Notes under the pieces: generated by a model
What the model was told of the DNA's origin: nothing
Databases searched by the model: none
The model's input: only the letters and a program-made list of their open reading frames with translations
From: a virus
Lineage: Duplodnaviria; Heunggongvirae; Uroviricota; Caudoviricetes
Virus record (IMG/VR): IMGVR_UViG_2802429248_000004
Coordinates: 1-9,623 of that record
Direction: 5' to 3' (one strand)
Length of the DNA: 9,623 nucleotides
Shown here: positions 1 to 9,623 of the stretch, one piece after another
How positions within the stretch are numbered: position 1 is the first letter of the stretch
How the letters are laid out: every line of letters begins with the position of its first letter
Position numbers and translations under genes: made by a program

Positions 1-141
1 TTACTGCTTACACTGTAAGAACGCCGCAAACTCCGCTCCCCAGAAGCTCATCCGTATTTCGCACAGCGAACCGTGCAACATCCAGATGATGAGGATTGCC
101 GTCACGCAGAACGTGATGGCCGTAAGCGATTTTTGCGACAT
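1..141 (-). CDS. Hok/Gef-family type I toxin (small membrane peptide), 46 aa
   Basis: Reverse-strand ORF ATG at 139-141, TAA at 1-3, translated by hand as MSQKSLTAITFCVTAILIIWMLHGSLCEIRMSFWGAEFAAFLQCKQ. Hydrophobic N-terminal segment followed by SLCEIR and EFAAFLxCK closely matches the Hok family pattern as I recall it (R1 Hok ...SLCEIR...EVAAF...; HokA ...WMIRDSLCEL...ELAAFLACK). AAGGAG Shine-Dalgarno about 8 nt upstream on the coding strand. Not in the supplied ORF track because it is under the length cut-off. Confidence 0.7.
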   Translation of the reverse strand: MSQKSLTAITFCVTAILIIWMLHGSLCEIRMSFWGAEFAAFLQCKQ

Positions 142-271
142 AGCACTTGCTCCTTTTCCGGAGAGGCGCTAACCTTTCACTTGTCAAGGTAATGCGGTTA
201 GGGCCTCGGTTAAACAGAAATGTTTTCCGGGGCCTTTCCACATCTGGCCTTCGGGTATTCCCTCCGACCAT
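8..271 (-). CDS. mok-like reading frame overlapping hok in another frame (putative translational coupler); possibly not translated
   Basis: 87-aa ORF from the track covers the whole hok ORF in a different frame and starts about 130 nt upstream, which is the hok/mok architecture known from plasmid R1. No convincing SD before the ATG at 269-271; no sequence similarity claimed. Confidence 0.2.
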   Translation of the reverse strand: MVGGNTRRPDVERPRKTFLFNRGPNRITLTSERLAPLRKRSKCYVAKIAYGHHVLRDGNPHHLDVARFAVRNTDELLGSGVCGVLTV

Positions 272-331
272 CAGCCGAAAGGCACCCGCGCGTAATCTAT
301 CTCTTTTTTGTTACTCCGGCAATTCTGCCTG

Positions 332-592
332 TTAATTTTGAGGTAAGGGCAAACTCATCTGATTGTTTCCTTTGTGTGAAGCTGGCAGTTCATGCCACGG
401 GATACCTTCTGAAGAGTGAGCGCCGGAGGCGTGTTTCGATGTGAATTTATGGAAAGCTTCCAGTGTTGAGAAGCATACGCCGCATTCTAGGTTGTTACAT
501 TGGTAATACTTTTGCCGCACGGTGTTTGAATCATTTTCCGGACGACTGGTGCGGATTCGGGCAGATGCGCCACAAAGCGGACAACGGAACAT
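332..592 (-). CDS. ogr: Ogr/Delta-family zinc-finger late-gene transcription activator
   Basis: 86-aa ORF beginning MFRCPLCGASARIRTSR...YYQCNNLEC, matching the P2 Ogr N-terminus (MFHCPLC...ARTSR...HQCQNVNC) with the four-Cys zinc-finger spacing. Strong SD AAGGGAGG 5 nt upstream of the ATG on the coding strand (plus-strand 596-603). Confidence 0.9.
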   Translation of the reverse strand: MFRCPLCGASARIRTSRPENDSNTVRQKYYQCNNLECGVCFSTLEAFHKFTSKHASGAHSSEGIPWHELPASHKGNNQMSLPLPQN

Positions 593-622
593 AGCGACCT
601 CCCTTACTGTGGTGCTTCTGTG

Positions 623-651
623 ATTTTAAGTCCTACTAGTACAGATTCCAA
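623..651 (-). promoter_or_regulatory. putative sigma70 promoter for ogr (-35 TTGGAA, 17-bp spacer, -10 TAAAAT on the minus strand)
   Basis: Hexamers read by eye on the reverse complement of 623-651, placed about 20-30 nt upstream of the ogr SD. No experimental support. Confidence 0.25.
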
Positions 652-776
652 CTGGCAAGGTGTTTTTAATAAGGAATGGTCGAAATCTTTACATGGTGAT
701 GAGTTTTTCCGAAAATAGCTCCACCCAACTTACTAGTGTATTTACAATAAATTTTATTTTAGTTCTGGAGTGTGAA

Positions 777-2015
777 ATGATATCGTTTATAACGAATAAT
801 ACAGGAGTTGTATTTAAGTATGAACCTGAAATAGGGAGTGTAAATTGGGTATGGAATGAATTTGAAACTAAAGAAACTGTAAGTATTTCTAAAGTGTTTC
901 ATTTCTATATTAGCGATTTGCTCAATTCCCCTTTACCTAACCAAGATTTTAATGATTATGCTTATGAGTTCCAATTCGGGACTTTTAGTGATGATTATAT
1001 TTTGATAAAGGGTCGTATATTAAATATTAAAAACGACTTGTATATTAGTAAAGATATCAAATTAAGTCGGGCAACCTTTGTTGCTGAGAGAAATGTTTCT
1101 ATTTTTGGTGGAATTTCGCGAATATTAAATCACAGTGACCCAATTTTTATTGGTGGAGAGGTTAAGGAGGCAATTCCTTCTGAAGTTTTTAGTGAGTTAC
1201 TGAGCAAATTTCCTAATTCATATGAATTGAATAACTATGCTAAGGCTAGAGTACACACAATTCTTGAACTATATTTAGATGGTATGAGAGATGCTCGAAG
1301 ACTTTACGATGCATACCTCAACAAAATAAAGCTAAAGAAAAAAAACAAACTTGATTTAAGCTGTATTAAAAAATTAGAGGTGGATAAATATATTTTTATT
1401 AGAGATAGCATTAAAAATGCTTTAGATACAAAGCAGAACATGTCTGAAAAAGAGTGGCAAGAACTGATGGTGCAGTTCCTTCCCCTTTTATTTCCCAAAT
1501 ATATTCTTGTGATAGAAAGCATCACTATCCATGATTACTATAGTTTTCCTGGCAAGAAAAGGAAACGATTCATAGATATAGGTTTGGTTGATGCTTGTGG
1601 CAATTTAGATATTATTGAAGTAAAAAAACCATTTGACAATAAGATATTGCGCAAGGCTAAGTATCGAGAGAATAACATACCAACTCCAGAGTTAAGTGGT
1701 AGTATTATGCAAGCTGAAAAATATCTCTTTCATTTATCAAAATGGGGAAGAAAAGGTGAAGATATCCTTACTAAAAAATATGCATCCAGACTACCTGATG
1801 GAATGAGTATTCATATTTCGTATCCCAAAGCGATTCTCATTATTGGTCGTGACCAGATTGATGATAGATATATGACAGAAGATCAAAAACTCGATTTCGA
1901 AATTATTAAGCGGAAATATACTAATATGATCGATATCATTACCTATGATGACCTCTTGAGACGGCTTGATCATACAATTTCAGCACTTACACTTAAAAAC
2001 GAAGCATCTGTGTAG
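777..2015 (+). CDS. AT-rich cargo gene: predicted PD-(D/E)xK nuclease, Shedu (DUF4263)-like candidate anti-phage defence protein; N-terminal half unassigned
   Basis: Long ORF in markedly AT-rich DNA between phage genes D and ogr. Track ORF starts at GTG 660, but ATG 777 has a GGAG SD 6 nt upstream and is preferred (alternative ATG 693). C-terminal half carries EKEWQELMVQFLPLLFP, then FIDIGLVD-x5-LDIIEVKKP (D ... E-V-K catalytic core, nt ~1575-1625), then MQAEKYL (QxxxY, nt ~1710-1724), then ILIIGRD and a terminal IITYDDLLRRL, a combination I recognise from DUF4263/Shedu nucleases. Stop TAG at 2013-2015. Confidence 0.75.
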   Translation: MISFITNNTGVVFKYEPEIGSVNWVWNEFETKETVSISKVFHFYISDLLNSPLPNQDFNDYAYEFQFGTFSDDYILIKGRILNIKNDLYISKDIKLSRATFVAERNVSIFGGISRILNHSDPIFIGGEVKEAIPSEVFSELLSKFPNSYELNNYAKARVHTILELYLDGMRDARRLYDAYLNKIKLKKKNKLDLSCIKKLEVDKYIFIRDSIKNALDTKQNMSEKEWQELMVQFLPLLFPKYILVIESITIHDYYSFPGKKRKRFIDIGLVDACGNLDIIEVKKPFDNKILRKAKYRENNIPTPELSGSIMQAEKYLFHLSKWGRKGEDILTKKYASRLPDGMSIHISYPKAILIIGRDQIDDRYMTEDQKLDFEIIKRKYTNMIDIITYDDLLRRLDHTISALTLKNEASV

Positions 2016-2057
2016 AAAGAAGAGTTTTGGTCTGGTGCGTCAACATAACGTTTGAAA

Positions 2058-2083
2058 CGTCCGCTTCTTTCACGAAGCGGATT
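2058..2083. terminator. candidate bidirectional stem-loop between the convergent cargo gene and gene D
   Basis: Inverted repeat TCCGCTTC (2060-2067) / GAAGCGGA (2074-2081) with a 6-nt loop; moderately U-rich flanks on both strands; lies in the 129-bp gap between two convergent stops. Confidence 0.3.
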
Positions 2084-2144
2084 CTCGGGTTAGCATTGTT
2101 CTGTGCTATAAACTTGGCAGTTTGAGTCAGCATATCTAAGTTAT

Positions 2145-3245
2145 TTACTCTGTTTCTGCTATCCATTCCGGGATTTTTGCCTCAAGCTCAAGCTGCGTGG
2201 TAAAGCCACTGTTATCAATGGTGTGCTCGGCTTTTGCAATAATCCAGCCCTGATTATCAATCTCGCTTTTAAATCCTGTTACCGTGCCATGCATTTCGGG
2301 GTAGAGTTCTGCACGTCCACGTGCCAGCGTGATGGAGAATGATGCGGCTCCGCGTTGTAGCTGCTGCCACTTTGCCGCCGCTGCACGTCTTGCTGCCTGC
2401 TCGTTCTGATAAGTCTTGCGTAACACAAACACGTTGCCTTCCGCACCTTCCATATAGTCACCTTCACGGCTGCTGCTTTTCTCCTTTTTCGGTTTGCGGC
2501 GTTTCACGCTGACTTTTTTCTTTTTCCCGTAATTAAGATCAAGCCAGTAAGCGCGTACCCCCGTATACGCTTCGCGGTCAGCAATGCGGAACTGATGGCG
2601 ATCGCCACTGCTGCGCGTGATGGCGAACGAGGGCAACGGCTGGCCCTGTGCGTTCACGCCACCGCCTGGCATGATGAATAACAGATTACCGCTTTTTACC
2701 GTAGTGATTGCGCCCAACATTTCCGCCATGCGCGTAAGGAAGGACATGTCGCTTTCTTCGGTCTGGTCGGCGTGGTCGATTTCAATATCCATCAGCATTT
2801 CGCTGATTTGCGGTTTCAGACCGTACCGATGAGCGATGGCGGATACCACGCGCTCAACGGTCACATCATGCCAGGACACTTCACGTTTAACGTTAAATTC
2901 ATCCCGAAAATCTGCGCTTCTGGCTGAAACAGTCAGCCTGTCCGGCGGTCCTTCGTGAGCGATTTCATCAACAATGTAAGTGCCTTTTTCTGTCAGCGGT
3001 TCTCCTTTCCAGCCAATGAGAACCGTCAGGCGCGCGCCCCGTGGCGGTAGCTGCAACTGACCATCTGCATCATCCAGCGTGATGGTAAGCTGGTCCGCCT
3101 CAAATCCCCGGTTGTCGGTCAGTGACAGGCTCATCAGGCGTTCTGCCACGCCGGACAGCGTTTTACCCTCCGCGAGAATATCAAAATCCGGCATTTTCAC
3201 GGGGTCTGTGCTCTGACTGAGCAATTGCATGGTGGTATCGGTCAT
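2145..3245 (-). CDS. D: P2 gpD-family late control / tail protein D
   Basis: Translation shares extended blocks with P2 gpD as I recall it (LTDNRGFEADQL, SWHD, FLTR, GVRAYW, REGDYMEGAEGNVF, SGFTTQLELE). Track ORF extends to 3377, but the ATG at 3243-3245 (MTDTTMQLL...) is preceded by a very strong SD (AGGGAGGGAG on the coding strand, plus-strand 3246-3258). Stop TAA at 2145-2147. Confidence 0.9.
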   Translation of the reverse strand: MTDTTMQLLSQSTDPVKMPDFDILAEGKTLSGVAERLMSLSLTDNRGFEADQLTITLDDADGQLQLPPRGARLTVLIGWKGEPLTEKGTYIVDEIAHEGPPDRLTVSARSADFRDEFNVKREVSWHDVTVERVVSAIAHRYGLKPQISEMLMDIEIDHADQTEESDMSFLTRMAEMLGAITTVKSGNLLFIMPGGGVNAQGQPLPSFAITRSSGDRHQFRIADREAYTGVRAYWLDLNYGKKKKVSVKRRKPKKEKSSSREGDYMEGAEGNVFVLRKTYQNEQAARRAAAAKWQQLQRGAASFSITLARGRAELYPEMHGTVTGFKSEIDNQGWIIAKAEHTIDNSGFTTQLELEAKIPEWIAETE

Positions 3246-3402
3246 CTGCTCCCTCCCTGTGCGGCATGGTCGCATGTGTGTGCGGGCGGGGTTACTGCTT
3301 TTTGTTGTCGCCGGGCGGCAAGAACGGCGCAGGGGTGAGATTACGCGCGTGGTGGGTGATGATTGTTGCCGAATCATTTAACGGATACAAGGGGCTGAAG
3401 CT

Positions 3403-4587
3403 ATGAGTGAAACTCGTTTTCATGGTGCCCGTGTTACGGAAAATACCGACCTGGTAACAGCGATTAACGATGTTGATTCCAGCGTTATCGGTATCGTGGC
3501 AACGGCGGATGATGCGGACGCGAAGCTGTTCCCGCTGAACAAGCCCACACTGCTGACCCGCGTCAATGACGTGCTGGGAAAATGCGGAACAACGGGGACG
3601 CTTTATCGTGCGCTTAAGGCCATCGCAGACCAGGTGAGCACAAAGGTGATCGTCGTTCGCGTGGCTGAACACAAAGAAGAAGACGGAAAGACGCAGGATC
3701 AACTGGTTATCGGTGGTTCTGAGGATGACGGCAGCTATACGGGGATGTATGCGCTGCTTGTTGCAGAGCAGGATGAAAGCATCGGATACCGTCCGCGTAT
3801 TCTGGCCGCGCCGGAGCTGGACACGGAGGCGGTGACAAAATCCCTGTGCGTGATTGCGGGTAAACTGCGCGCGTTTGTGTATGCCTCATGTCACGGCTGT
3901 AACACGATGGCTGAAGCGATTACCTACCGCCAGAAATTCAACGAACGTGAAGTGATGCTCTTGTGGCCGGACTTCATCGCCTACAACCCGAAAGGTGGCG
4001 AAAACGAAACGTTCCCCGCGCCTGCCTATGCGTGCGGCCTTCGTGCGTACATTGACCATGAGCAGGGCTGGCACAAATCGCTGTCCAACGTTCCGGTTAA
4101 AAATGTGCTGGGGATGTCCAGGCATGTGTTCTGGTCGTTACAGGCCGAAGACAGCGATGCCAACAGCCTCAACAACAAAGAAATCACGACCATTATTCGT
4201 CGCAACGGGTTCCGCTTCTGGGGCAACCGCACACCGGAAACGAACGCCTACATCTTTGAGGTGTATACCCGAACCGCACAGGTGCTGGCTGATTCAATTG
4301 CGGAAGCGCAGTTTGAAACCATCGACAGTCCACTGACGCCTGCGAACGTGAAGGATGTTATCAGTGCCATCAGGGCAAAGCTGGATTCACTGGTTACTGC
4401 CGGGAAACTGATTGGCGCGGAGTGCTGGTATGACGTGGTGGATAACAGCACCACGGATTTACGTCAGGGGCGTGTGCGTATTCGCTACAAATATACGCCC
4501 GTTCCGCCACTGGAAGACATGGAGCTTTACCAGACGTTTACTGATGAATACTTTGAACCCGCATTTGCGGTGTTGGGAGGTGCCTGA
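3403..4587 (+). CDS. FI: contractile tail sheath protein (P2 FI family)
   Basis: 394 aa; strong similarity to P2 FI throughout as I recall it (DADA..FPLNKP, RILA.PELDTEAV, KLRAF.YAS.HGC, GWHK.LSNV, IRR.GFRFWGNRT, YTPVPPLE). SD AAGGGG 9 nt upstream. Confidence 0.95.
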   Translation: MSETRFHGARVTENTDLVTAINDVDSSVIGIVATADDADAKLFPLNKPTLLTRVNDVLGKCGTTGTLYRALKAIADQVSTKVIVVRVAEHKEEDGKTQDQLVIGGSEDDGSYTGMYALLVAEQDESIGYRPRILAAPELDTEAVTKSLCVIAGKLRAFVYASCHGCNTMAEAITYRQKFNEREVMLLWPDFIAYNPKGGENETFPAPAYACGLRAYIDHEQGWHKSLSNVPVKNVLGMSRHVFWSLQAEDSDANSLNNKEITTIIRRNGFRFWGNRTPETNAYIFEVYTRTAQVLADSIAEAQFETIDSPLTPANVKDVISAIRAKLDSLVTAGKLIGAECWYDVVDNSTTDLRQGRVRIRYKYTPVPPLEDMELYQTFTDEYFEPAFAVLGGA

Positions 4588-5099
4588 TGGCTGTGCCAAA
4601 ACATCTTCGCTTTTTTACGCTGTTTGTGGATGGTGAAAACGAAGTGGGTAAGGTGACGTCCGTCACTCTGCCTAAGCTGACGCGCAAAACCGACAGCTAC
4701 CGGGGTGGTGGCATGATGGGGGCGGTAAGTATTGATCTCGGTCTGGACGACTCCGCGCTTGATGCGAGCTTTGTCATGGGGGGCGCAGTTCGTGAGCTGT
4801 TCCTTAAGTATGGCGGCACGATTGACGGCACGCTGCTGCGTTTTGCGGGTGAATACTACACCGATGCAGAAAGCGACCTGTATGAAGTCGAAATGCGCGG
4901 ACGTGTGACGGAAATTGATATGGGGGAAGCCAAACAGGGCGAAGCCACATCACACACTTACGCCATTAAAAACACCTACTACAAGCTGAGTGTTAACGAT
5001 CGCCCGTTGTGGGAGATTGACCTGCTGAACTTCATTTACCGGAAGGACGGCAAGGACATTGCGCCCGATCGCATCCGTTCCGCGCTTGGGCTTGGCTGA
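4587..5099 (+). CDS. FII: tail tube protein (P2 FII family)
   Basis: 170 aa; ATG overlaps the FI stop (TGATG); SD GGGAGG 6 nt upstream; similarity to P2 FII (VTSVTLPKLTRK..YRGGGM, LRFAG.Y, EIDMGEAKQGE). Double stop TGATAA. Confidence 0.95.
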   Translation: MAVPKHLRFFTLFVDGENEVGKVTSVTLPKLTRKTDSYRGGGMMGAVSIDLGLDDSALDASFVMGGAVRELFLKYGGTIDGTLLRFAGEYYTDAESDLYEVEMRGRVTEIDMGEAKQGEATSHTYAIKNTYYKLSVNDRPLWEIDLLNFIYRKDGKDIAPDRIRSALGLG

Positions 5100-5154
5100 T
5101 AAGTAATATGCAGGCGGCGCAGTGCGTCGCCTCTGACTGAAAAGGAGACCACTG

Positions 5155-5529
5155 ATGAAAAACATCGATACTGAAACCCAGAATAACACCGTGGCGGATG
5201 ATGTGACGGCAGATGAGGATATGGCTGTCGAACGTGGTGTAAAACTTTCCCGGCCAATTGAGCGTGGCGGCGAAAAAATCACGTATGTGGAGATCACCGG
5301 GGCTATTGAGCAGGCTGGATCCCTGCGAGGTTTGTCGCTGTCTGATGTGCTGAATCTGAAAGCGGATACCATGTTCACGCTGTTGCCTCGCGTGACTTCG
5401 CCACGACTGGATGAAGTGATGATTAAAAAAATGTCGTCACGCGATTTTATTCAGTTGTGCGCTGTGGCTGTAAATTTTATGAGCGAGCCAGACTCTGGCG
5501 CGAAGAGCGTGCAGGAGACGGCAGCGTAA
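5155..5529 (+). CDS. E: tail assembly chaperone gpE (P2 E family)
   Basis: 124-aa ORF with AGGAG SD 7 nt upstream; sits between tube and tape-measure genes as in P2/lambda (E or G chaperone position); its 3' end overlaps an RBS-less ORF in the -1 frame. Confidence 0.85.
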   Translation: MKNIDTETQNNTVADDVTADEDMAVERGVKLSRPIERGGEKITYVEITGAIEQAGSLRGLSLSDVLNLKADTMFTLLPRVTSPRLDEVMIKKMSSRDFIQLCAVAVNFMSEPDSGAKSVQETAA

Positions 5530-5693
5530 TCACCCTGGTGTGCTTTGAGCACATCGAAGATCTGGTGGCGGATATTGCCGCCATTTTTAACTGGTCGCCC
5601 GCCGAAATCTTCATGATGACGCCCGGCGAAGTGGTTAGCTGGCGTGAGCGGGCGGCACTTCGCAGCGGGAATGCAGACAATGAAGACTCTTGA
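5427..5693 (+). CDS. gpE' extension, expressed as an E+E' fusion by programmed -1 ribosomal frameshift
   Basis: The -1 frame relative to E is open from 5427 (just after a TAA at 5424-5426) to TGA at 5691-5693 and has no credible independent start or SD; it overlaps the 3' end of E and ends at the tape-measure start. This mirrors P2 E/E' and lambda G/GT. Candidate slippery sites in the E frame: A7 run at 5425-5431 and A-AAT-TTT at 5472-5478. Confidence 0.5.
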   Translation, partial: KNVVTRFYSVVRCGCKFYERARLWREERAGDGSVITLVCFEHIEDLVADIAAIFNWSPAEIFMMTPGEVVSWRERAALRSGNADNEDS

Positions 5694-8487
5694 TATCCGG
5701 GTCGCTTTCAGCGCCGTTGACAGGCTGACCCGGCCTGCCGAAAACGCCCGCCGCCTGATGGGGCAGTTTGGTGACTCTATCCAGCGAACGCAGGGGGCGA
5801 TCAAAAATCTCGAGCGTCAGGCGCGTTCATTTGAGCGCGCCCGTGACGCTGTCAGTAAAGCGGATGCGGGCATCGTAAAAGCACGACGCCAGCTTAACGC
5901 CCTTAATCAGTTACAACGCACGGGTACAGTGCTCAGCGAAAAACAGCAAAAGCTGATGCAGCAGTTAAGCACCCGGCTTGAACGCCTGAATGAATCGCGC
6001 ACACGGGAAATTCAGAAAATGCGGGAGCTTGGCGGAGAGCTGAAACGCCACGGCATTTCCCTGACAGGCAGCGATAACACCATCCAGCAGACCATCAGAC
6101 GCACCGAACAGTACAACAACCAGCTTGAACGCGAACGGCAGGCGCTTGCGCGTGTAACGCGGGCGCGTGAGCGGTATTCGCGCGCGCAGGAAATTGCGGG
6201 AAAACTGAAAACAGGTGGTGCGCTGGCAATTGGTGCGGCAGCGGCTGGCGGTTATGCCGCCGGGCGTTTTTTGCAGCCTGCGATCGGGTTCGGGAAAGAG
6301 ATGTCCCGCGTTCAGGCGCTGACGCGAATCGACAAAAACAGCCCGCAGTTTAAGGCGCTGCGTGAGCAGGCGTTAAAACTTGGCTCTGAAACGCAGTTCA
6401 CCGCAGGCGATGCCGCCAGTGGACAGGCATTTCTTGCAATGGCTGGCTTCACTCCGCAGGCCATTCAGGCTGCGCTTCCCGGCGTACTGAGCATGGCAAC
6501 GGCTGGCGGTATGGATCTCGGCGAGACGGCAGATATTGGCTCAAATATCCTGACGCAGTTCGGCCTTTCTGCTGACCAGATGGACCGGGTCGGTGACACA
6601 CTCACCGCAGCGTTTACCCGTACCAACACTGACCTTCGCGCACTGGGCGAAACCATGAAATATGCAGGTCCGGTGGCGGGTAAGCTGGGAATATCGCTGG
6701 AGCAGGCCGCAGCGATGGCTGGCGTGCTGGCGAATATGGGCATCAGAGGGAGTGATGCCGGGACGGCAATGCGTGCCAGCCTGGCTCGTCTGGCATCACC
6801 GCCAAAGGCAGCGGCAGAAGCGCTGAAAGAGCTGGGCGTGTCCGTCTCGGATGCCGGGGGCAAAATGCGCCCGATGGAAGATCTGCTGGCTGACCTTTAT
6901 AAAGCTACCCGCAAATACGGGGAAGTTGACCGGGTATCCTTCTTTAAGGACATCGCCGGGGAAGAGGCTTTCACATCGTTTATGGCACTCGTTGATGCGG
7001 CGGGTGACGGTTCCTTACCCAAACTGAGAAAAGAACTTGAGGGCGCACGCGGTGAGGCTGAACGCACGGCAAAGGTTATGGCCGACAACCTTGATGGCGA
7101 CCTGAAAAATCTCGACAGCGCATGGGAAGGTCTTCGTATTCGCATCAGTGATCTGGTTGACGGTTCGCTGCGTTCTGTCACGCAGTGGCTAACGCGGGTG
7201 GTCTCAAAAGTGACGGCACTGGCGCAGGCCCATCCTGTACTGACGCGCCAGCTACTGATTGCAGGCGGTGCGCTGCTGGCAGTGACTGCAACCGTAGGCT
7301 CGTTGTCGCTTGCTCTTGGTGTGCTTGCTGGCCCACTGGCAAAACTGCGTCTTGGTTTTTCCCTCCTGACCGGATCAATGAATGCTGTCAGGCTCCTGCC
7401 TGCACTATGGGGAATGGTGACGGGTTCCGTTTCGTTACTGGGGGGCGCTATCGGGGCGCTGTTCAGCCCGGTCGGATTGATTGCTGCTGCGTTTGTGGCT
7501 GCGGCAGTTCTCATCTGGAAATACTGGGAACCCATCAAGGCGTTTTATGCCGGGGTGTTCAGTGGGATTATGGAACGGCTGGCTCCGTTGCGCGAAACCT
7601 TTGAACGGTTCGGTCCTGTTTTTGATGTCGTGCGCGATGGGATTATTCAGGTCTTTAACTGGTTTAAATCGCTGCTGTCACCGATGGAGTCCAGCAAGGA
7701 AACGCTGGATAAATGTACCAGTGCTGGCGAGATATTCGGTAACGTTCTTGGTGGCGCGCTACAGCTTGTTCTGACGCCTGCAAAAATGTTGCTGGATACG
7801 CTGGCGTGGATACTTGAAAAACTTGGCGTCCTTCCGGATGAAGCGGAAAGGGCGCGCAAGAAAATCGAAGACGCGCAGCGTGCGGCCATTCTTCAGGATA
7901 AGGTCGCTCTGTTTCAGGGAGACATTGCGAAAATCAATCCGCCGAAGCCTGTGGAAAATGGCAATGGCACCGGAGGTGATAACCCCAAAGACAACAAACC
8001 GCTCACAGACAGCAATACCGGTACGCTACGCAGACTAAGCAAAATTGCTGATAACACAGGCAAGCTGGTTGATGAGACGAAAAAACGCATTGGCCCCGGT
8101 GATATTGTCTTTAAGAACCTGCCCCGCGCACTTGCCGTTCGTGGGGAGTGGCAGGATCGGAAGATTGCGCAGGCCAGTAAGCCTGCTCCCGCAATTAATA
8201 TCACCCCCGTGGTTCCGGCTCCGCTGCCTCCGGCGCTGGTCCCTGTTGTTGCGGCCAGCTCCCGCCCGGTGGCGGAGGCCATACGATCGCCAGTGGCATC
8301 AGTTCCTGCAACTTCCCGTAACCGGGAGCCTGTTACCTCCGGATTTGGTGGTGAAATTCATGTCCATCTGCATAACGTTGTTACGCAGAATCCCCGCGAA
8401 CTGGCGAAACTGGTCGGTGAAATGGTCAGGGCAGAATTGGAACGACGCGACCGTGCCGGACGTGGCAGTTTTTACGATAAAGATTGA
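5680..8487 (+). CDS. T: tail tape measure protein (P2 gpT family)
   Basis: ~935-aa ORF directly after E/E'; coiled-coil-like N-terminal third, a central block of hydrophobic/Gly-Ala-rich segments, and a Pro/Ala-rich C-terminus, typical of tape measure proteins. Start uncertain: ATG 5680 (preferred, GGGA about 9 nt upstream), ATG 5671 or GTG 5644 in the same frame. Confidence 0.9.
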   Translation: MKTLDIRVAFSAVDRLTRPAENARRLMGQFGDSIQRTQGAIKNLERQARSFERARDAVSKADAGIVKARRQLNALNQLQRTGTVLSEKQQKLMQQLSTRLERLNESRTREIQKMRELGGELKRHGISLTGSDNTIQQTIRRTEQYNNQLERERQALARVTRARERYSRAQEIAGKLKTGGALAIGAAAAGGYAAGRFLQPAIGFGKEMSRVQALTRIDKNSPQFKALREQALKLGSETQFTAGDAASGQAFLAMAGFTPQAIQAALPGVLSMATAGGMDLGETADIGSNILTQFGLSADQMDRVGDTLTAAFTRTNTDLRALGETMKYAGPVAGKLGISLEQAAAMAGVLANMGIRGSDAGTAMRASLARLASPPKAAAEALKELGVSVSDAGGKMRPMEDLLADLYKATRKYGEVDRVSFFKDIAGEEAFTSFMALVDAAGDGSLPKLRKELEGARGEAERTAKVMADNLDGDLKNLDSAWEGLRIRISDLVDGSLRSVTQWLTRVVSKVTALAQAHPVLTRQLLIAGGALLAVTATVGSLSLALGVLAGPLAKLRLGFSLLTGSMNAVRLLPALWGMVTGSVSLLGGAIGALFSPVGLIAAAFVAAAVLIWKYWEPIKAFYAGVFSGIMERLAPLRETFERFGPVFDVVRDGIIQVFNWFKSLLSPMESSKETLDKCTSAGEIFGNVLGGALQLVLTPAKMLLDTLAWILEKLGVLPDEAERARKKIEDAQRAAILQDKVALFQGDIAKINPPKPVENGNGTGGDNPKDNKPLTDSNTGTLRRLSKIADNTGKLVDETKKRIGPGDIVFKNLPRALAVRGEWQDRKIAQASKPAPAINITPVVPAPLPPALVPVVAASSRPVAEAIRSPVASVPATSRNREPVTSGFGGEIHVHLHNVVTQNPRELAKLVGEMVRAELERRDRAGRGSFYDKD

Positions 8488-8499
8488 GGAGTCATGGCC

Positions 8500-8988
8500 A
8501 TGATGATGATCTACGGCATGTTTGTTTTTGAGCTGCGCACATTGCCGCATCAGCAGTTACAGCAAAATAAAAGCTGGCGACATGTGAAAAATGAACGCGT
8601 TAACCGTTCAGCAAGCTGGCAGTATATCGGGGCTGGCGATGATCGTATTGTTCTTTCTGGTGTGCTTTATCCTGAAATTACAGGTGGCGAAGTGTCGCTG
8701 TCTCTGCTGGCCACGCAGGCGTATACCGGACGCCCCTGGCCTCTGATTGATGGCGTCGGGCAGATTTACGGCATGTATGTCCTGACCGAAACGAATACGA
8801 CCCGTTCCGAGTTTGATCGCTACGGTAAGGCGAAAAAGATAGAATTTTCACTGACCCTTGAACGCTGTGATGAGGATTTGCGGGAGCGCCTGCAATCCTC
8901 ATCGTTCAGCGATATGCTGTCCGGCTTCAAAGATAAGGTCACATCATCCCTTAACAGCGCGGCCAGCTCCGTTAAAGGGTTGTTTTGA
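8500..8988 (+). CDS. U: tail protein gpU (P2 U family, tail terminator/tube-completion)
   Basis: Similarity to P2 gpU (MMM..G.FVF.L.T.P.Q.LQ...W.H, ITLSG.LYPE.TGG, IYGM.V). GAGGAG SD at 8486-8491 fits the ATG at 8500 (the MMM start, as in P2 U) better than the track start at 8494. Confidence 0.9.
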   Translation: MMMIYGMFVFELRTLPHQQLQQNKSWRHVKNERVNRSASWQYIGAGDDRIVLSGVLYPEITGGEVSLSLLATQAYTGRPWPLIDGVGQIYGMYVLTETNTTRSEFDRYGKAKKIEFSLTLERCDEDLRERLQSSSFSDMLSGFKDKVTSSLNSAASSVKGLF

Positions 8989-8995
8989 CTTAATG

Positions 8996-9027
8996 CAAAA
9001 CCGCTAATAAACATATTGGCGGTTTTG
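8996..9027. terminator. bidirectional rho-independent terminator-like hairpin between convergent gpU and tfa
   Basis: 14-bp stem CAAAACCGCTAATA / TATTGGCGGTTTTG with one G-U position and a 4-nt loop AACA; A-tract on one side and T-tract on the other; lies in the 59-bp gap between the U stop (8988) and the tfa stop (9048). Confidence 0.45.
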
Positions 9028-9047
9028 TTCCTTAAATCATCTTGCCT

Positions 9048-9623
9048 TTACACTAATTCTGGCCATTCGATATCAGGGGCATTTTCCGGCTGAACGCGAT
9101 TCAGTAGCACACGGTATTTTTTCCAGTGTGTCAGGCTTAACTTTTCTTCCTCGGTAGCCATATCTAAATCGACAGCATCCTGCAGCATGGCAATGATTTC
9201 ACCTGCATATGCAATCTGCTCTTTCTTCTGAGACTCAGCCGCTCTGACAAGTGCATCACGCTCTGCATTCTCATCATTCACCCACGCATTGCCGTTCCAT
9301 TTCTGATAATCCCCCTCCGGGGAAATGGCTGTCACGTCTGGAGGTAATGCGCCAAGTTCAGAGATATAAATGGCTGCTCCCGTTTTCGTTTCATAGACGG
9401 TCTTTCCGCGATGGTCTTCCATCAGTTCCCATTTCATTTCATCTGCATTGAAAACGGCTGCATAACCCGCCGGAATATCAGGCGGTGCAATATCTGTACT
9501 GTTTGCAGGCAGACCTGTATGCGGCGGAATATATGCGTCACTTTCACCAATAAATTCATTGGTTCCATCAAGTAAATTGAAAACGCGGATCGTTTGTGCT
9601 TCTGCACTCATTCTGAAAGCCAT
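9048..9623 (-). CDS. tfa: tail fibre assembly protein (Tfa; TfaE-like N-terminus with a P2 gpG-like C-terminus)
   Basis: 191 aa; N-terminus [53 protein letters not shown] closely matches E. coli TfaE-type proteins as I recall them; C-terminus ([18 protein letters not shown]...PDIEWPE) resembles P2 gpG. The start codon is the last three bases of the window, so the upstream region and the tail fibre gene itself are out of view. Confidence 0.9.

Follow-up and report, generated by a model that had tools for sequence, protein, structure and literature searches.

The 9,623-nt stretch of DNA analysed here (the window) carries P2-type tail genes in an order that differs from that of P2, and it raises the question of whether this order reflects a recent rearrangement, an assembly error or the normal organisation of a group of phages. 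In the P2 record, the genes V, W, J, I, H, G, (fun), FI, FII, E, E', T, U, D and ogr all lie on one strand, whereas in the window FI, FII, E/E', T and U (3403-8988) lie on the plus strand, and D (2145-3245), ogr (332-592) and tfa (9048-9623) on the minus strand. We are highly confident that the window corresponds to the tail-gene end of a P88-like prophage (genus Xuanwuvirus, family Peduoviridae), located beside ihfA-pheT in an Escherichia chromosome, and that its opposed FI-U block is an old inversion relative to the P2 order, fixed in a clade, and not a recent, switchable or artefactual feature.

Gene content of the window and comparison with P2

The minus-strand genes begin with a hok/gef toxin gene (1-141; identified by gene calling, with a weak Pfam match to HOK_GEF), which is overlapped by a mok-like reading frame (8-271). 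This hok/mok pair (1-271), the equivalent of which is annotated as "MokW-like host killing" in P88, comprises the final prophage genes ahead of the host ihfA-pheT flank. It is followed by ogr (332-592), which encodes an Ogr/Delta zinc-finger late-gene activator (Pfam Ogr_Delta, E 5.4e-14) and has a sigma-70-like site upstream (TTGGAA-17-TAAAAT at 651-623, minus strand), and by the gene for the late control D/baseplate hub protein gpD (2145-3245; Pfam Phage_GPD), the product of which is 99.5% identical to P88 gpD. On the plus strand, we found the genes for the tail sheath FI (3403-4587; Pfam sheath domains), the tail tube FII (4587-5099; Pfam Phage_tube, 8.8e-47), the tail assembly chaperone E (5155-5529; Pfam Phage_TAC_7), its -1 frame partner E' (5538-5693; Pfam Phage_P2_GpE), the tape measure T (5680-8487, the longest reading frame starting at 5644; Pfam PhageMin_Tail, 7.2e-58) and the tail protein gpU (8494-8988; Pfam Phage_P2_GpU, 6e-39). 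A slippery heptamer, A_AAT_TTT, stands in frame at 5472-5478, and the -1 frame is open from there into E'. The baseplate/fibre operon ends with tfa (9048-9623, minus strand), which encodes a P2 G-like tail fibre assembly protein (Pfam Caudo_TAP, 6.4e-39) and shares 95% nucleotide identity with the tfa gene of Peduovirus P24A7b.

Together, FI, FII, the E+E' frameshift pair, T, gpU, gpD and tfa represent the gene content of a P2-like (Peduoviridae) contractile tail cluster, and an Ogr/Delta activator gene neighbours D, from which it is separated in the window by a 1.5-kb Shedu cassette. The tail cluster of P2 likewise comprises an H/G-type fibre module, FI, FII, an E/E' frameshift pair, T, U, D, ogr and an Ogr-type late-promoter box, its proteins being 33-49% identical to those of the window. 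In P2, however, pF drives a single operon from FI to D that is colinear with V-G and ogr, whereas the canonical FI-FII-E-T-U-D-ogr order is absent from the window, where the reversal of FI-U makes D a separate unit. Colinearity characterises P2 and many genera but is no criterion for the family.

The closest relatives of the window are the Xuanwuvirus phages P88, P88_4B11, Shae_phiSM, PhiR44_2 and Chuche, which are 93-95% identical to it in nucleotide sequence over hok-ogr and D-FI-FII-E-T-U; over positions 1-9026 minus the cargo insert at 632-2134, the identity to Xuanwuvirus phages is 95%. The 93-95% identity extends over 78% of the 9.6-kb window, which is a partial genome; the ICTV genus threshold is about 70% over the whole genome. 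The window also follows the gene order of the P88 and P88_4B11 maps (V-W-J-I-H-G and D-ogr on one strand, U-T-E-FII-FI on the other), and the Xuanwuvirus relatives possess both the D/FI spacer and the hairpin after U that are described below.

The opposed orientation is widespread and old

As an earlier note on this DNA had stated, exactly the FI-U block is reversed when the Pfam-identified genes are compared with the P2 record, and the breakpoints fall within the two intergenic spacers that it had named, 3246-3402 (junction 1) and 8989-9047 (junction 2). That note had seen no inverted repeat shared by the junctions, and we found none either: the longest exact inverted match is 9 nt, a length reached or exceeded in 14 of 200 shuffles, the 25 longest inverted repeats of the window include none that connects junction 1 with junction 2, and the direct repeats connecting both junctions that were also sought gave nothing above chance.

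A layout which is exactly a one-block reversal of P2 is what one would expect from a recent inversion of 5.7 kb in place, specific to the window prophage or its immediate ancestors. Such an event is nevertheless very improbable, for the following reasons. First, the opposed order occurs in isolated phages: the annotated genomes of P88 and P88_4B11 have an orientation pattern identical to that of the window, PhiSM has the same orientation, and both P88 and PhiSM can be induced or are spontaneously active. Second, of 5426 complete E. coli genomes, 1356 contain the full-length D/FI junction (1356 of the 1380 with any match), so that a quarter of these genomes carry the P88-type prophage order. 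Third, this orientation persists down to 64% D-protein identity, since D homologues were found at 46 loci (64-99% identity) in at least 20 Enterobacterales genera, and at all of the approximately 44 informative loci, where upstream DNA is present, FI..U diverge from D, and ogr comes after D. Fourth, the junctions have no repeats. Fifth, the D/FI spacer bears conserved regulatory footprints, which imply long-term function. The earlier note had named functional P2-like relatives having the opposed orientation as standard as the finding that would speak against an anomaly; such relatives exist, and the feature is therefore nothing unusual in its group. Among the options between which that note had hedged, the "ancestral arrangement of this lineage" was the right one.

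Similarly to the E. coli phages, the Klebsiella Reginaelenavirus (species rv3LV2017, record Kp4860-2; 73% D identity) has FI..U opposed to D-ogr and shares conserved elements of the D/FI spacer with the window, although it belongs to another genus, infects another host and has a protein identity of only 62-73%. The opposed clade includes at least Xuanwuvirus, Reginaelenavirus and many unclassified Enterobacterales prophages. By contrast, the order is colinear in the outgroups P2, Gegevirus and Elveevirus (49-54% D identity), as well as in the Burkholderia phage KS5 (Kisquinquevirus) and the Vibrio phage VP58.5 (a Vhmlvirus, outside Peduoviridae). As the whole clade is opposed while relatives with a more distant D are colinear, the flip is old, fixed and clade-defining, its assignment to the P88-type clade, and not to the others, being a matter of parsimony over a handful of outgroups and not of a rooted tree. 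The reverse polarity, with the opposed orientation ancestral to P2-like phages and the colinear P2 order derived, could draw on this lack of a rooted phylogeny and on the size and diversity of the opposed clade; we regard it as unlikely, because all sampled outside groups (Peduovirus, Gegevirus, Elveevirus, Kisquinquevirus and Vhmlvirus) are colinear, and several independent re-inversions would be needed.

The opposed order was already known from deposited annotated genomes, not from any paper discussing orientation. Our literature search for an explicit account of it in P88-like phages found none, the papers on P88 and on Citrobacter PhiSM containing no terms for orientation or inversion, and an ST131 preprint describes only an invertase-driven fibre switch. 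The finding as stated matters little, as it rediscovers the normal order of common, catalogued P2-related prophages. It does show that P2 is not a universal template of "P2-like" synteny, so that closer relatives should be checked before a rearrangement or a misassembly is inferred.

The U/tfa junction and the fibre-switching invertase

At junction 2, the convergent U and tfa genes are separated by 59 nt, which contain a 15-bp hairpin with A-rich and U-rich flanks (8995-9028; fold -22 kcal/mol, z = -6.7) that is likely a bidirectional terminator. Homology to the P88-like phages extends to 9024-9037, and the homology switch falls between 9026 and 9057. In its exact form, the U/tfa junction of the window was found at full length in none of the complete E. 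coli genomes, and the draft contig to which it belongs ends about 600 nt away; its reality consequently rests on an independent copy of the stretch comprising the U 3' end, the hairpin and tfa in plasmid pN10e (98.3% identity), and on more distant relatives. Convergent, adjacent U and tfa occur in 12 relatives.

A draft contig that stops 23 nt past tfa, with junction 2 near its end, could in principle contain a misjoin that mimics an inversion, and the earlier note had allowed for such an assembly artefact. We consider this next to impossible. Finished phage genomes contain junction 1, as do the 1356 complete E. coli genomes, and the opposed orientation is annotated in the functional isolated phages P88, P88_4B11 and PhiSM; the complete genome AH19B041 has, at the same ihfA site, the overall layout of the window; junction 2 has an independent sequence copy in pN10e, and its architecture is repeated in the 12 relatives; and neither junction has a repeat able to mislead an assembler.

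Whereas U abuts the Peduovirus P24A7b-like tfa in the window, it is followed in the named E. coli Xuanwuvirus phages by an invertase gene and an invertible segment of alternative fibre/tfa sequence, the DNA invertase gene coming directly after U in P88 and P88_4B11. A Pfam search found no invertase in the window, which also has no such alternative-fibre segment. Versions devoid of the invertase exist both in other genera and in complete E. coli genomes, hence the invertase segment is a variable accessory rather than a trait that defines the group. The position of this enzyme, together with the reversible inversion of the tail-fibre segment in P88-like phages, might suggest that FI-U is itself a reversible switch run by a Gin/Cin-type invertase. 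This reading is highly unlikely. The P88-like invertase targets the fibre segment, not FI-U, and the window possesses neither an invertase nor, at its junctions, the inverted-repeat crossover sites expected at both ends of a Gin/Cin/Hin-type segment, the 9-nt longest match being in the chance range. Both orientations were not seen in otherwise identical genomes, as the junction is intact in 1356 of 1380 genomes and all informative loci have a single FI-U orientation. Moreover, flipping the block would uncouple FI-U from its conserved predicted promoter and terminator. The U-adjacent P88 invertase was accordingly rejected as the maker or operator of the FI-U flip: it acts on the fibre segment, and FI-U occurs in one orientation only.

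A predicted shared activator site between D and FI

Junction 1 is a 157-bp divergent D/FI control region (3246-3402), in which an alignment of 42 distinct relatives reveals conserved blocks. The earlier note had reasoned that D, severed from the F-operon promoter, needs a start of its own, a view supported by the strong footprints of this spacer in about 41 divergent relatives. The strong Shine-Dalgarno sequence that it ascribed to D is also present (GGGAGGGAG), ending 3 nt ahead of the ATG at 3245, which is invariant across the 42-sequence alignment and is the true D start.

Once the relatives were aligned, and only then, we recognised in this spacer an Ogr-type partial dyad (GTTGTC-N10-AAGAAC, 3304-3325, centre 3314.5), of which GTTGT is invariant and for which the clade consensus is GTTGTC-N10-GACAAC. 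It is the sole match in the window scoring at least 10/12, and the annotated P2 pF site has an equal score in the same register. In P2-type Ogr-dependent late promoters, a partial dyad of the TGT-N12-ACA class stands about 55 nt ahead of the start; a strict TGT-N12-ACA scan of the window returned one site only, inside FI, which we take as chance. At a fixed offset from the dyad centre lies the -10-like hexamer GACCAT (3266-3271, minus strand) of a predicted leftward D promoter, where 40 of 41 relatives have an A at position 2 and 39 of 41 a T at position 6; its predicted start, at about 3259, would leave a D leader of merely 14 nt or so. The mirror-image offset is occupied by the hexamer GATGAT (3358-3363, plus strand) of a predicted FI operon late promoter, in which positions 2 and 5 are A, and position 6 is T, each in 40 of 41 relatives, and the predicted start (about 3370) falls within a conserved CGAACTCA block (3369-3376). 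This FI-side geometry agrees with the mapped starts of P2 pF and pO. The symmetric hexamers match nAnnAT in 39-40 of 41 sequences, and both dyad flanks are footprinted; most relatives, however, have a stronger right half-dyad than the AAGAAC of the window and a stronger D-side hexamer than its GACCAT.

A similar arrangement is found at the P2 pP/pO promoters, where a single activator dyad (GTTGTG-N10-GCCATC) is annotated for both promoters, weak nAnnnT hexamers stand at offsets matching those of the D/FI spacer, and transcription starts 55.5 nt on either side of the dyad centre, these P2 starts being annotated as mapped whereas those of the window are predicted. The P2 site serves head genes (P/Q versus O-S); the D/FI unit would serve tail genes. 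From this common geometry, we propose that one predicted Ogr box probably drives both the FI operon and D, a promoter model, built on sequence conservation and on analogy with P2, that we favour with moderate confidence; the short predicted D leader and the weaker dyad half and D-side hexamer of the window speak against it. The tail genes would then be organised as three late transcription units, instead of two in P2: the baseplate/fibre operon would run leftward and end at the hairpin 8995-9028, the FI-U operon would run rightward into the same hairpin, and D would be transcribed leftward from the 157-bp spacer, with D and FI both activated by the dyad at 3304-3325. In relatives devoid of the Shedu insert, ogr begins only about 40 nt past D and may therefore belong to the D unit; if so, ogr might come under Ogr-dependent positive feedback. 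A broader proposal, which seems to us plausible but evenly balanced, is that the inversion set D back-to-back with FI, creating around one Ogr dyad a pair of divergent tail promoters of mirror geometry (a second instance of the pP/pO design), with ogr perhaps fed by Ogr itself and the D/ogr spacer acting as a clade-specific cargo slot. A single activator box for two divergent tail-gene promoters is a testable model and a modest lead for further work.

A Shedu cassette in the D/ogr spacer

The D/ogr spacer of the window contains a low-GC (about 31%) cargo cassette (632-2134, plus strand), delimited by its GC profile and by comparison with P88_4B11 and a Salmonella locus. It encodes the Shedu protein SduA (777-2015, plus strand; PADLOC SduA, 692 bits, full length; Pfam SduA_C, 3.3e-31), followed by a predicted hairpin (2059-2082; fold). 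The named Xuanwuvirus phages do not have this cassette in their D/ogr spacer, and a megablast search found no counterpart of it among complete E. coli genomes. Elsewhere, the same slot holds at least two other cargo genes, for which PADLOC gave no match and Pfam only a sub-threshold HEPN match for one. Two defence hotspots have been named in P2 (PMC9519451); the D/ogr cargo slot is distinct from both of them and, as it houses a Shedu defence gene here, it constitutes a second modest lead.

Gene content and orientation of the tail-gene block

From the ORFs and Pfam scans, the window carries hok with an overlapping mok-like frame (1-271, minus strand); ogr (332-592, minus); a low-GC gene with a Shedu SduA_C domain (777-2015, plus); gpD (2145-3245, minus); the FI sheath (3403-4587), FII tube (4587-5099), E (5155-5529), E' (5538-5693), tape measure T (5680-8487) and gpU (8494-8988) genes, all on the plus strand; and the tail fibre assembly gene tfa (9048-9623, minus). 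The true D start is the ATG at 3245, which has GGGAGGGAG upstream and is invariant among relatives. E contains an in-frame canonical -1 slippery heptamer, A_AAT_TTT (5472-5478), from which the -1 frame is open through E'; this is likely the site of an E+E' programmed frameshift.

The P2 record reads V W J I H G, fun(Z), FI FII E E' T U D ogr, all rightward except fun(Z), and annotates D as the final gene of the F operon. Hence FI-U is colinear with D and ogr in P2, whereas in the window the block is exactly reversed, as had been claimed, with the junctions falling in the two spacers named beforehand (D/FI, 3246-3402; U/tfa, 8989-9047). We also confirmed that no meaningful inverted repeat joins these junctions, the longest exact inverted match being 9 nt, a length matched by 14 of 200 shuffles.

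The source contig (GCA_002965825.1, PTSI01000009.1) stops 23 nt past the tfa start, so that the remaining prophage lies on another contig. On its other side, host ihfA-pheT lies about 300 nt from hok, and this prophage/ihfA junction is common to 299 complete E. coli genomes.

The opposed layout in P88-like phages and their relatives

In megablast against phage records, window 1-9026 minus the cargo insert is 93-95% identical to Xuanwuvirus genomes, namely P88, P88_4B11, Shae_phiSM, PhiR44_2, Chuche and others. P88 and P88_4B11 are annotated with the baseplate/fibre genes, D and hok on one strand and U-T-E'-E-FII-FI on the opposite one, as in the window. Induction yielded P88, which lyses E. 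coli strains, and PhiSM is spontaneously active (PMC6456863). Of 5426 complete E. coli genomes, 1356 matched a 1-kb probe spanning the D/FI junction over 80% or more of its length, most of them with 95-99% identity, and the complete genome AH19B041 shares both the layout of the window and the ihfA-pheT site of the source contig. The earlier note had described the block as inverted relative to canonical P2 synteny and had proposed a synteny comparison. This comparison found the same orientation to be standard in functional P2-like relatives, the outcome that the note itself had named as refuting; the opposed layout is not unusual, but is the standard gene order of the P88-like group, to which the window belongs. 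As data it is already known, since classified phage records in the databases have it, as does a quarter of the complete E. coli genomes; we found no discussion of it in the searchable literature.

A D-protein scan of one genome per species yielded 46 loci at 64-99% identity, in Salmonella, Symbiopectobacterium, Serratia, Edwardsiella, Kluyvera, Enterobacter, Erwinia, Pantoea, Pectobacterium, Kosakonia, Citrobacter, Mixta, Brenneria, Izhakiella, Klebsiella, Raoultella, Yokenella, Rouxiella, Trabulsiella and others. At every locus with upstream DNA, tblastn with the window proteins had FI-FII-E-T-U diverging from D on the other strand, with ogr following D. A Klebsiella Reginaelenavirus (D identity 73%) has the opposed layout too; the colinear order occurs in phages whose D proteins are more distant, namely Gegevirus and Elveevirus (52-54%), P2 (49%), Burkholderia phage KS5 and, outside Peduoviridae, Vibrio phage VP58.5. 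By parsimony over these groups, the opposed layout would be a single old inversion marking a clade.

Two assemblies that bear the labels Vagococcus sp. and Planococcaceae MAG (L007 and L049) also contain near-identical P88-like prophage sequence (D identity 97-99%), probably through enterobacterial contamination or mis-binning.

The U/tfa junction

U (stop at 8988) and tfa (stop at 9048) are convergent, and between them lies a 15-bp hairpin (8995-9028; -22 kcal/mol, z = -6.7) with A-rich and U-rich flanks, as would be expected for a bidirectional terminator between convergent operons. Homology to the E. coli P88-like phages stops at 9024-9037, and from 9057 on the window matches tfa of Peduovirus P24A7b, a switch that takes about 30 nt. 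Beyond U, the named E. coli members continue into a DNA invertase and an invertible fibre segment; the window has no invertase, which is one of two accessory features that set it apart from them.

The earlier note had left room for an assembly artefact. About 600 nt separate the junction from a draft-contig end, and its exact full-length form is absent from complete E. coli genomes. We nevertheless judge it to be real, from the following lines of evidence. First, a stretch of plasmid pN10e (L004 8999-9726) that is 98.3% identical to the window comprises the final 90 nt of U together with the hairpin and tfa. Second, in 12 wider-clade loci U and tfa converge and are 118-200 nt apart. Third, the invertase is also missing from AH19B041. 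The scrap of U on pN10e implies that the fibre module was exchanged along with a piece of U.

A putative back-to-back late promoter in the D/FI spacer

An alignment of 42 distinct D/FI spacers revealed the following conserved elements, listed from D towards FI: the start codon and Shine-Dalgarno of D; a block, ATTTCAYGCGCGCGCG, diverged in the E. coli phages; an invariant GTTGT within TTTTTGTTGTC, with a sequence resembling GACAAC 10 nt further on; a hexamer, GAnnAT; a second block, CGAACTCA; and the FI Shine-Dalgarno and start codon. The clade dyad, GTTGTC-N10-GACAAC, is in the register of the annotated pF activator site of P2 (GTTGTG-N10-GCCAAC); the window version is GTTGTC-N10-AAGAAC (3304-3325, centre 3314.5). 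Hexamers read at fixed offsets, 43.5 to 48.5 nt either side of the dyad centre, have A at position 2 in 40/41 spacers on both sides; position 5 is A in 40/41 on the FI side and less conserved on the D side; and position 6 is T in 40/41 and 39/41, respectively. The spacer is conserved and its geometry is mirrored about the dyad. In P2, a single activator site is annotated for pP and pO (dyad centre 3071.5), whose transcription starts, 3016 and 3127, lie 55.5 nt each side of the centre, with hexamers TAGCCT and GAAACT at offsets equal to those in the D/FI spacer.

From this likeness we infer that the D/FI spacer acts as a promoter and depends on Ogr. In the simplest reading, the inversion would have yielded a second back-to-back late promoter pair, a single Ogr box driving FI-U rightward from a predicted start near 3370 and D leftward from one near 3259, the predicted D leader of 14 nt carrying a strong Shine-Dalgarno. 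In relatives that lack an insert, D and the start of ogr are about 40 nt apart, so the two genes may share a transcript.

In P88, the spacer between the head genes P and O (L006 14151-14306) has a box of its own, GTTCTG-N10-TACAAC. A 12-mer, CGCGCGCGAAAC, occurs both in this spacer and in the D-side half of the D/FI spacer in relatives (e.g., L021); the leftward promoter halves may be under the same constraint or have the same origin.

A Shedu cassette between D and ogr

The window, unlike the named E. coli P88-like members, carries a 1503-bp cassette of about 31% GC (632-2134) exactly within the D/ogr spacer of approximately 40 nt, where TTTAAGT and TCTAAGT flank it. Its gene product is a full-length Shedu SduA (777-2015, plus; 692 bits in PADLOC); a hairpin (2059-2082) follows the gene, and megablast gave no match to the cassette in the 5426 complete E. 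coli genomes. A sigma-70-like site before ogr (623-651, minus) straddles the cassette edge, its -10 (TAAAAT) being phage backbone and its -35 (TTGGAA) the end of the cassette. Two P2 defence hotspots, A/Q and G/FI, have been described (PMC9519451); the D/ogr slot is neither, and looks like a cargo or defence hotspot apart from them.

In relatives, other single genes occupy this slot on the strand opposite: a 386-aa unknown gene in L007 (9229-10389), a hypothetical gene of similar size class in AH19B041 (L057 14417-15571), and in L049 (568-1590) a gene for 340 aa whose HEPN_RiboL-PSP match is weak and below threshold.
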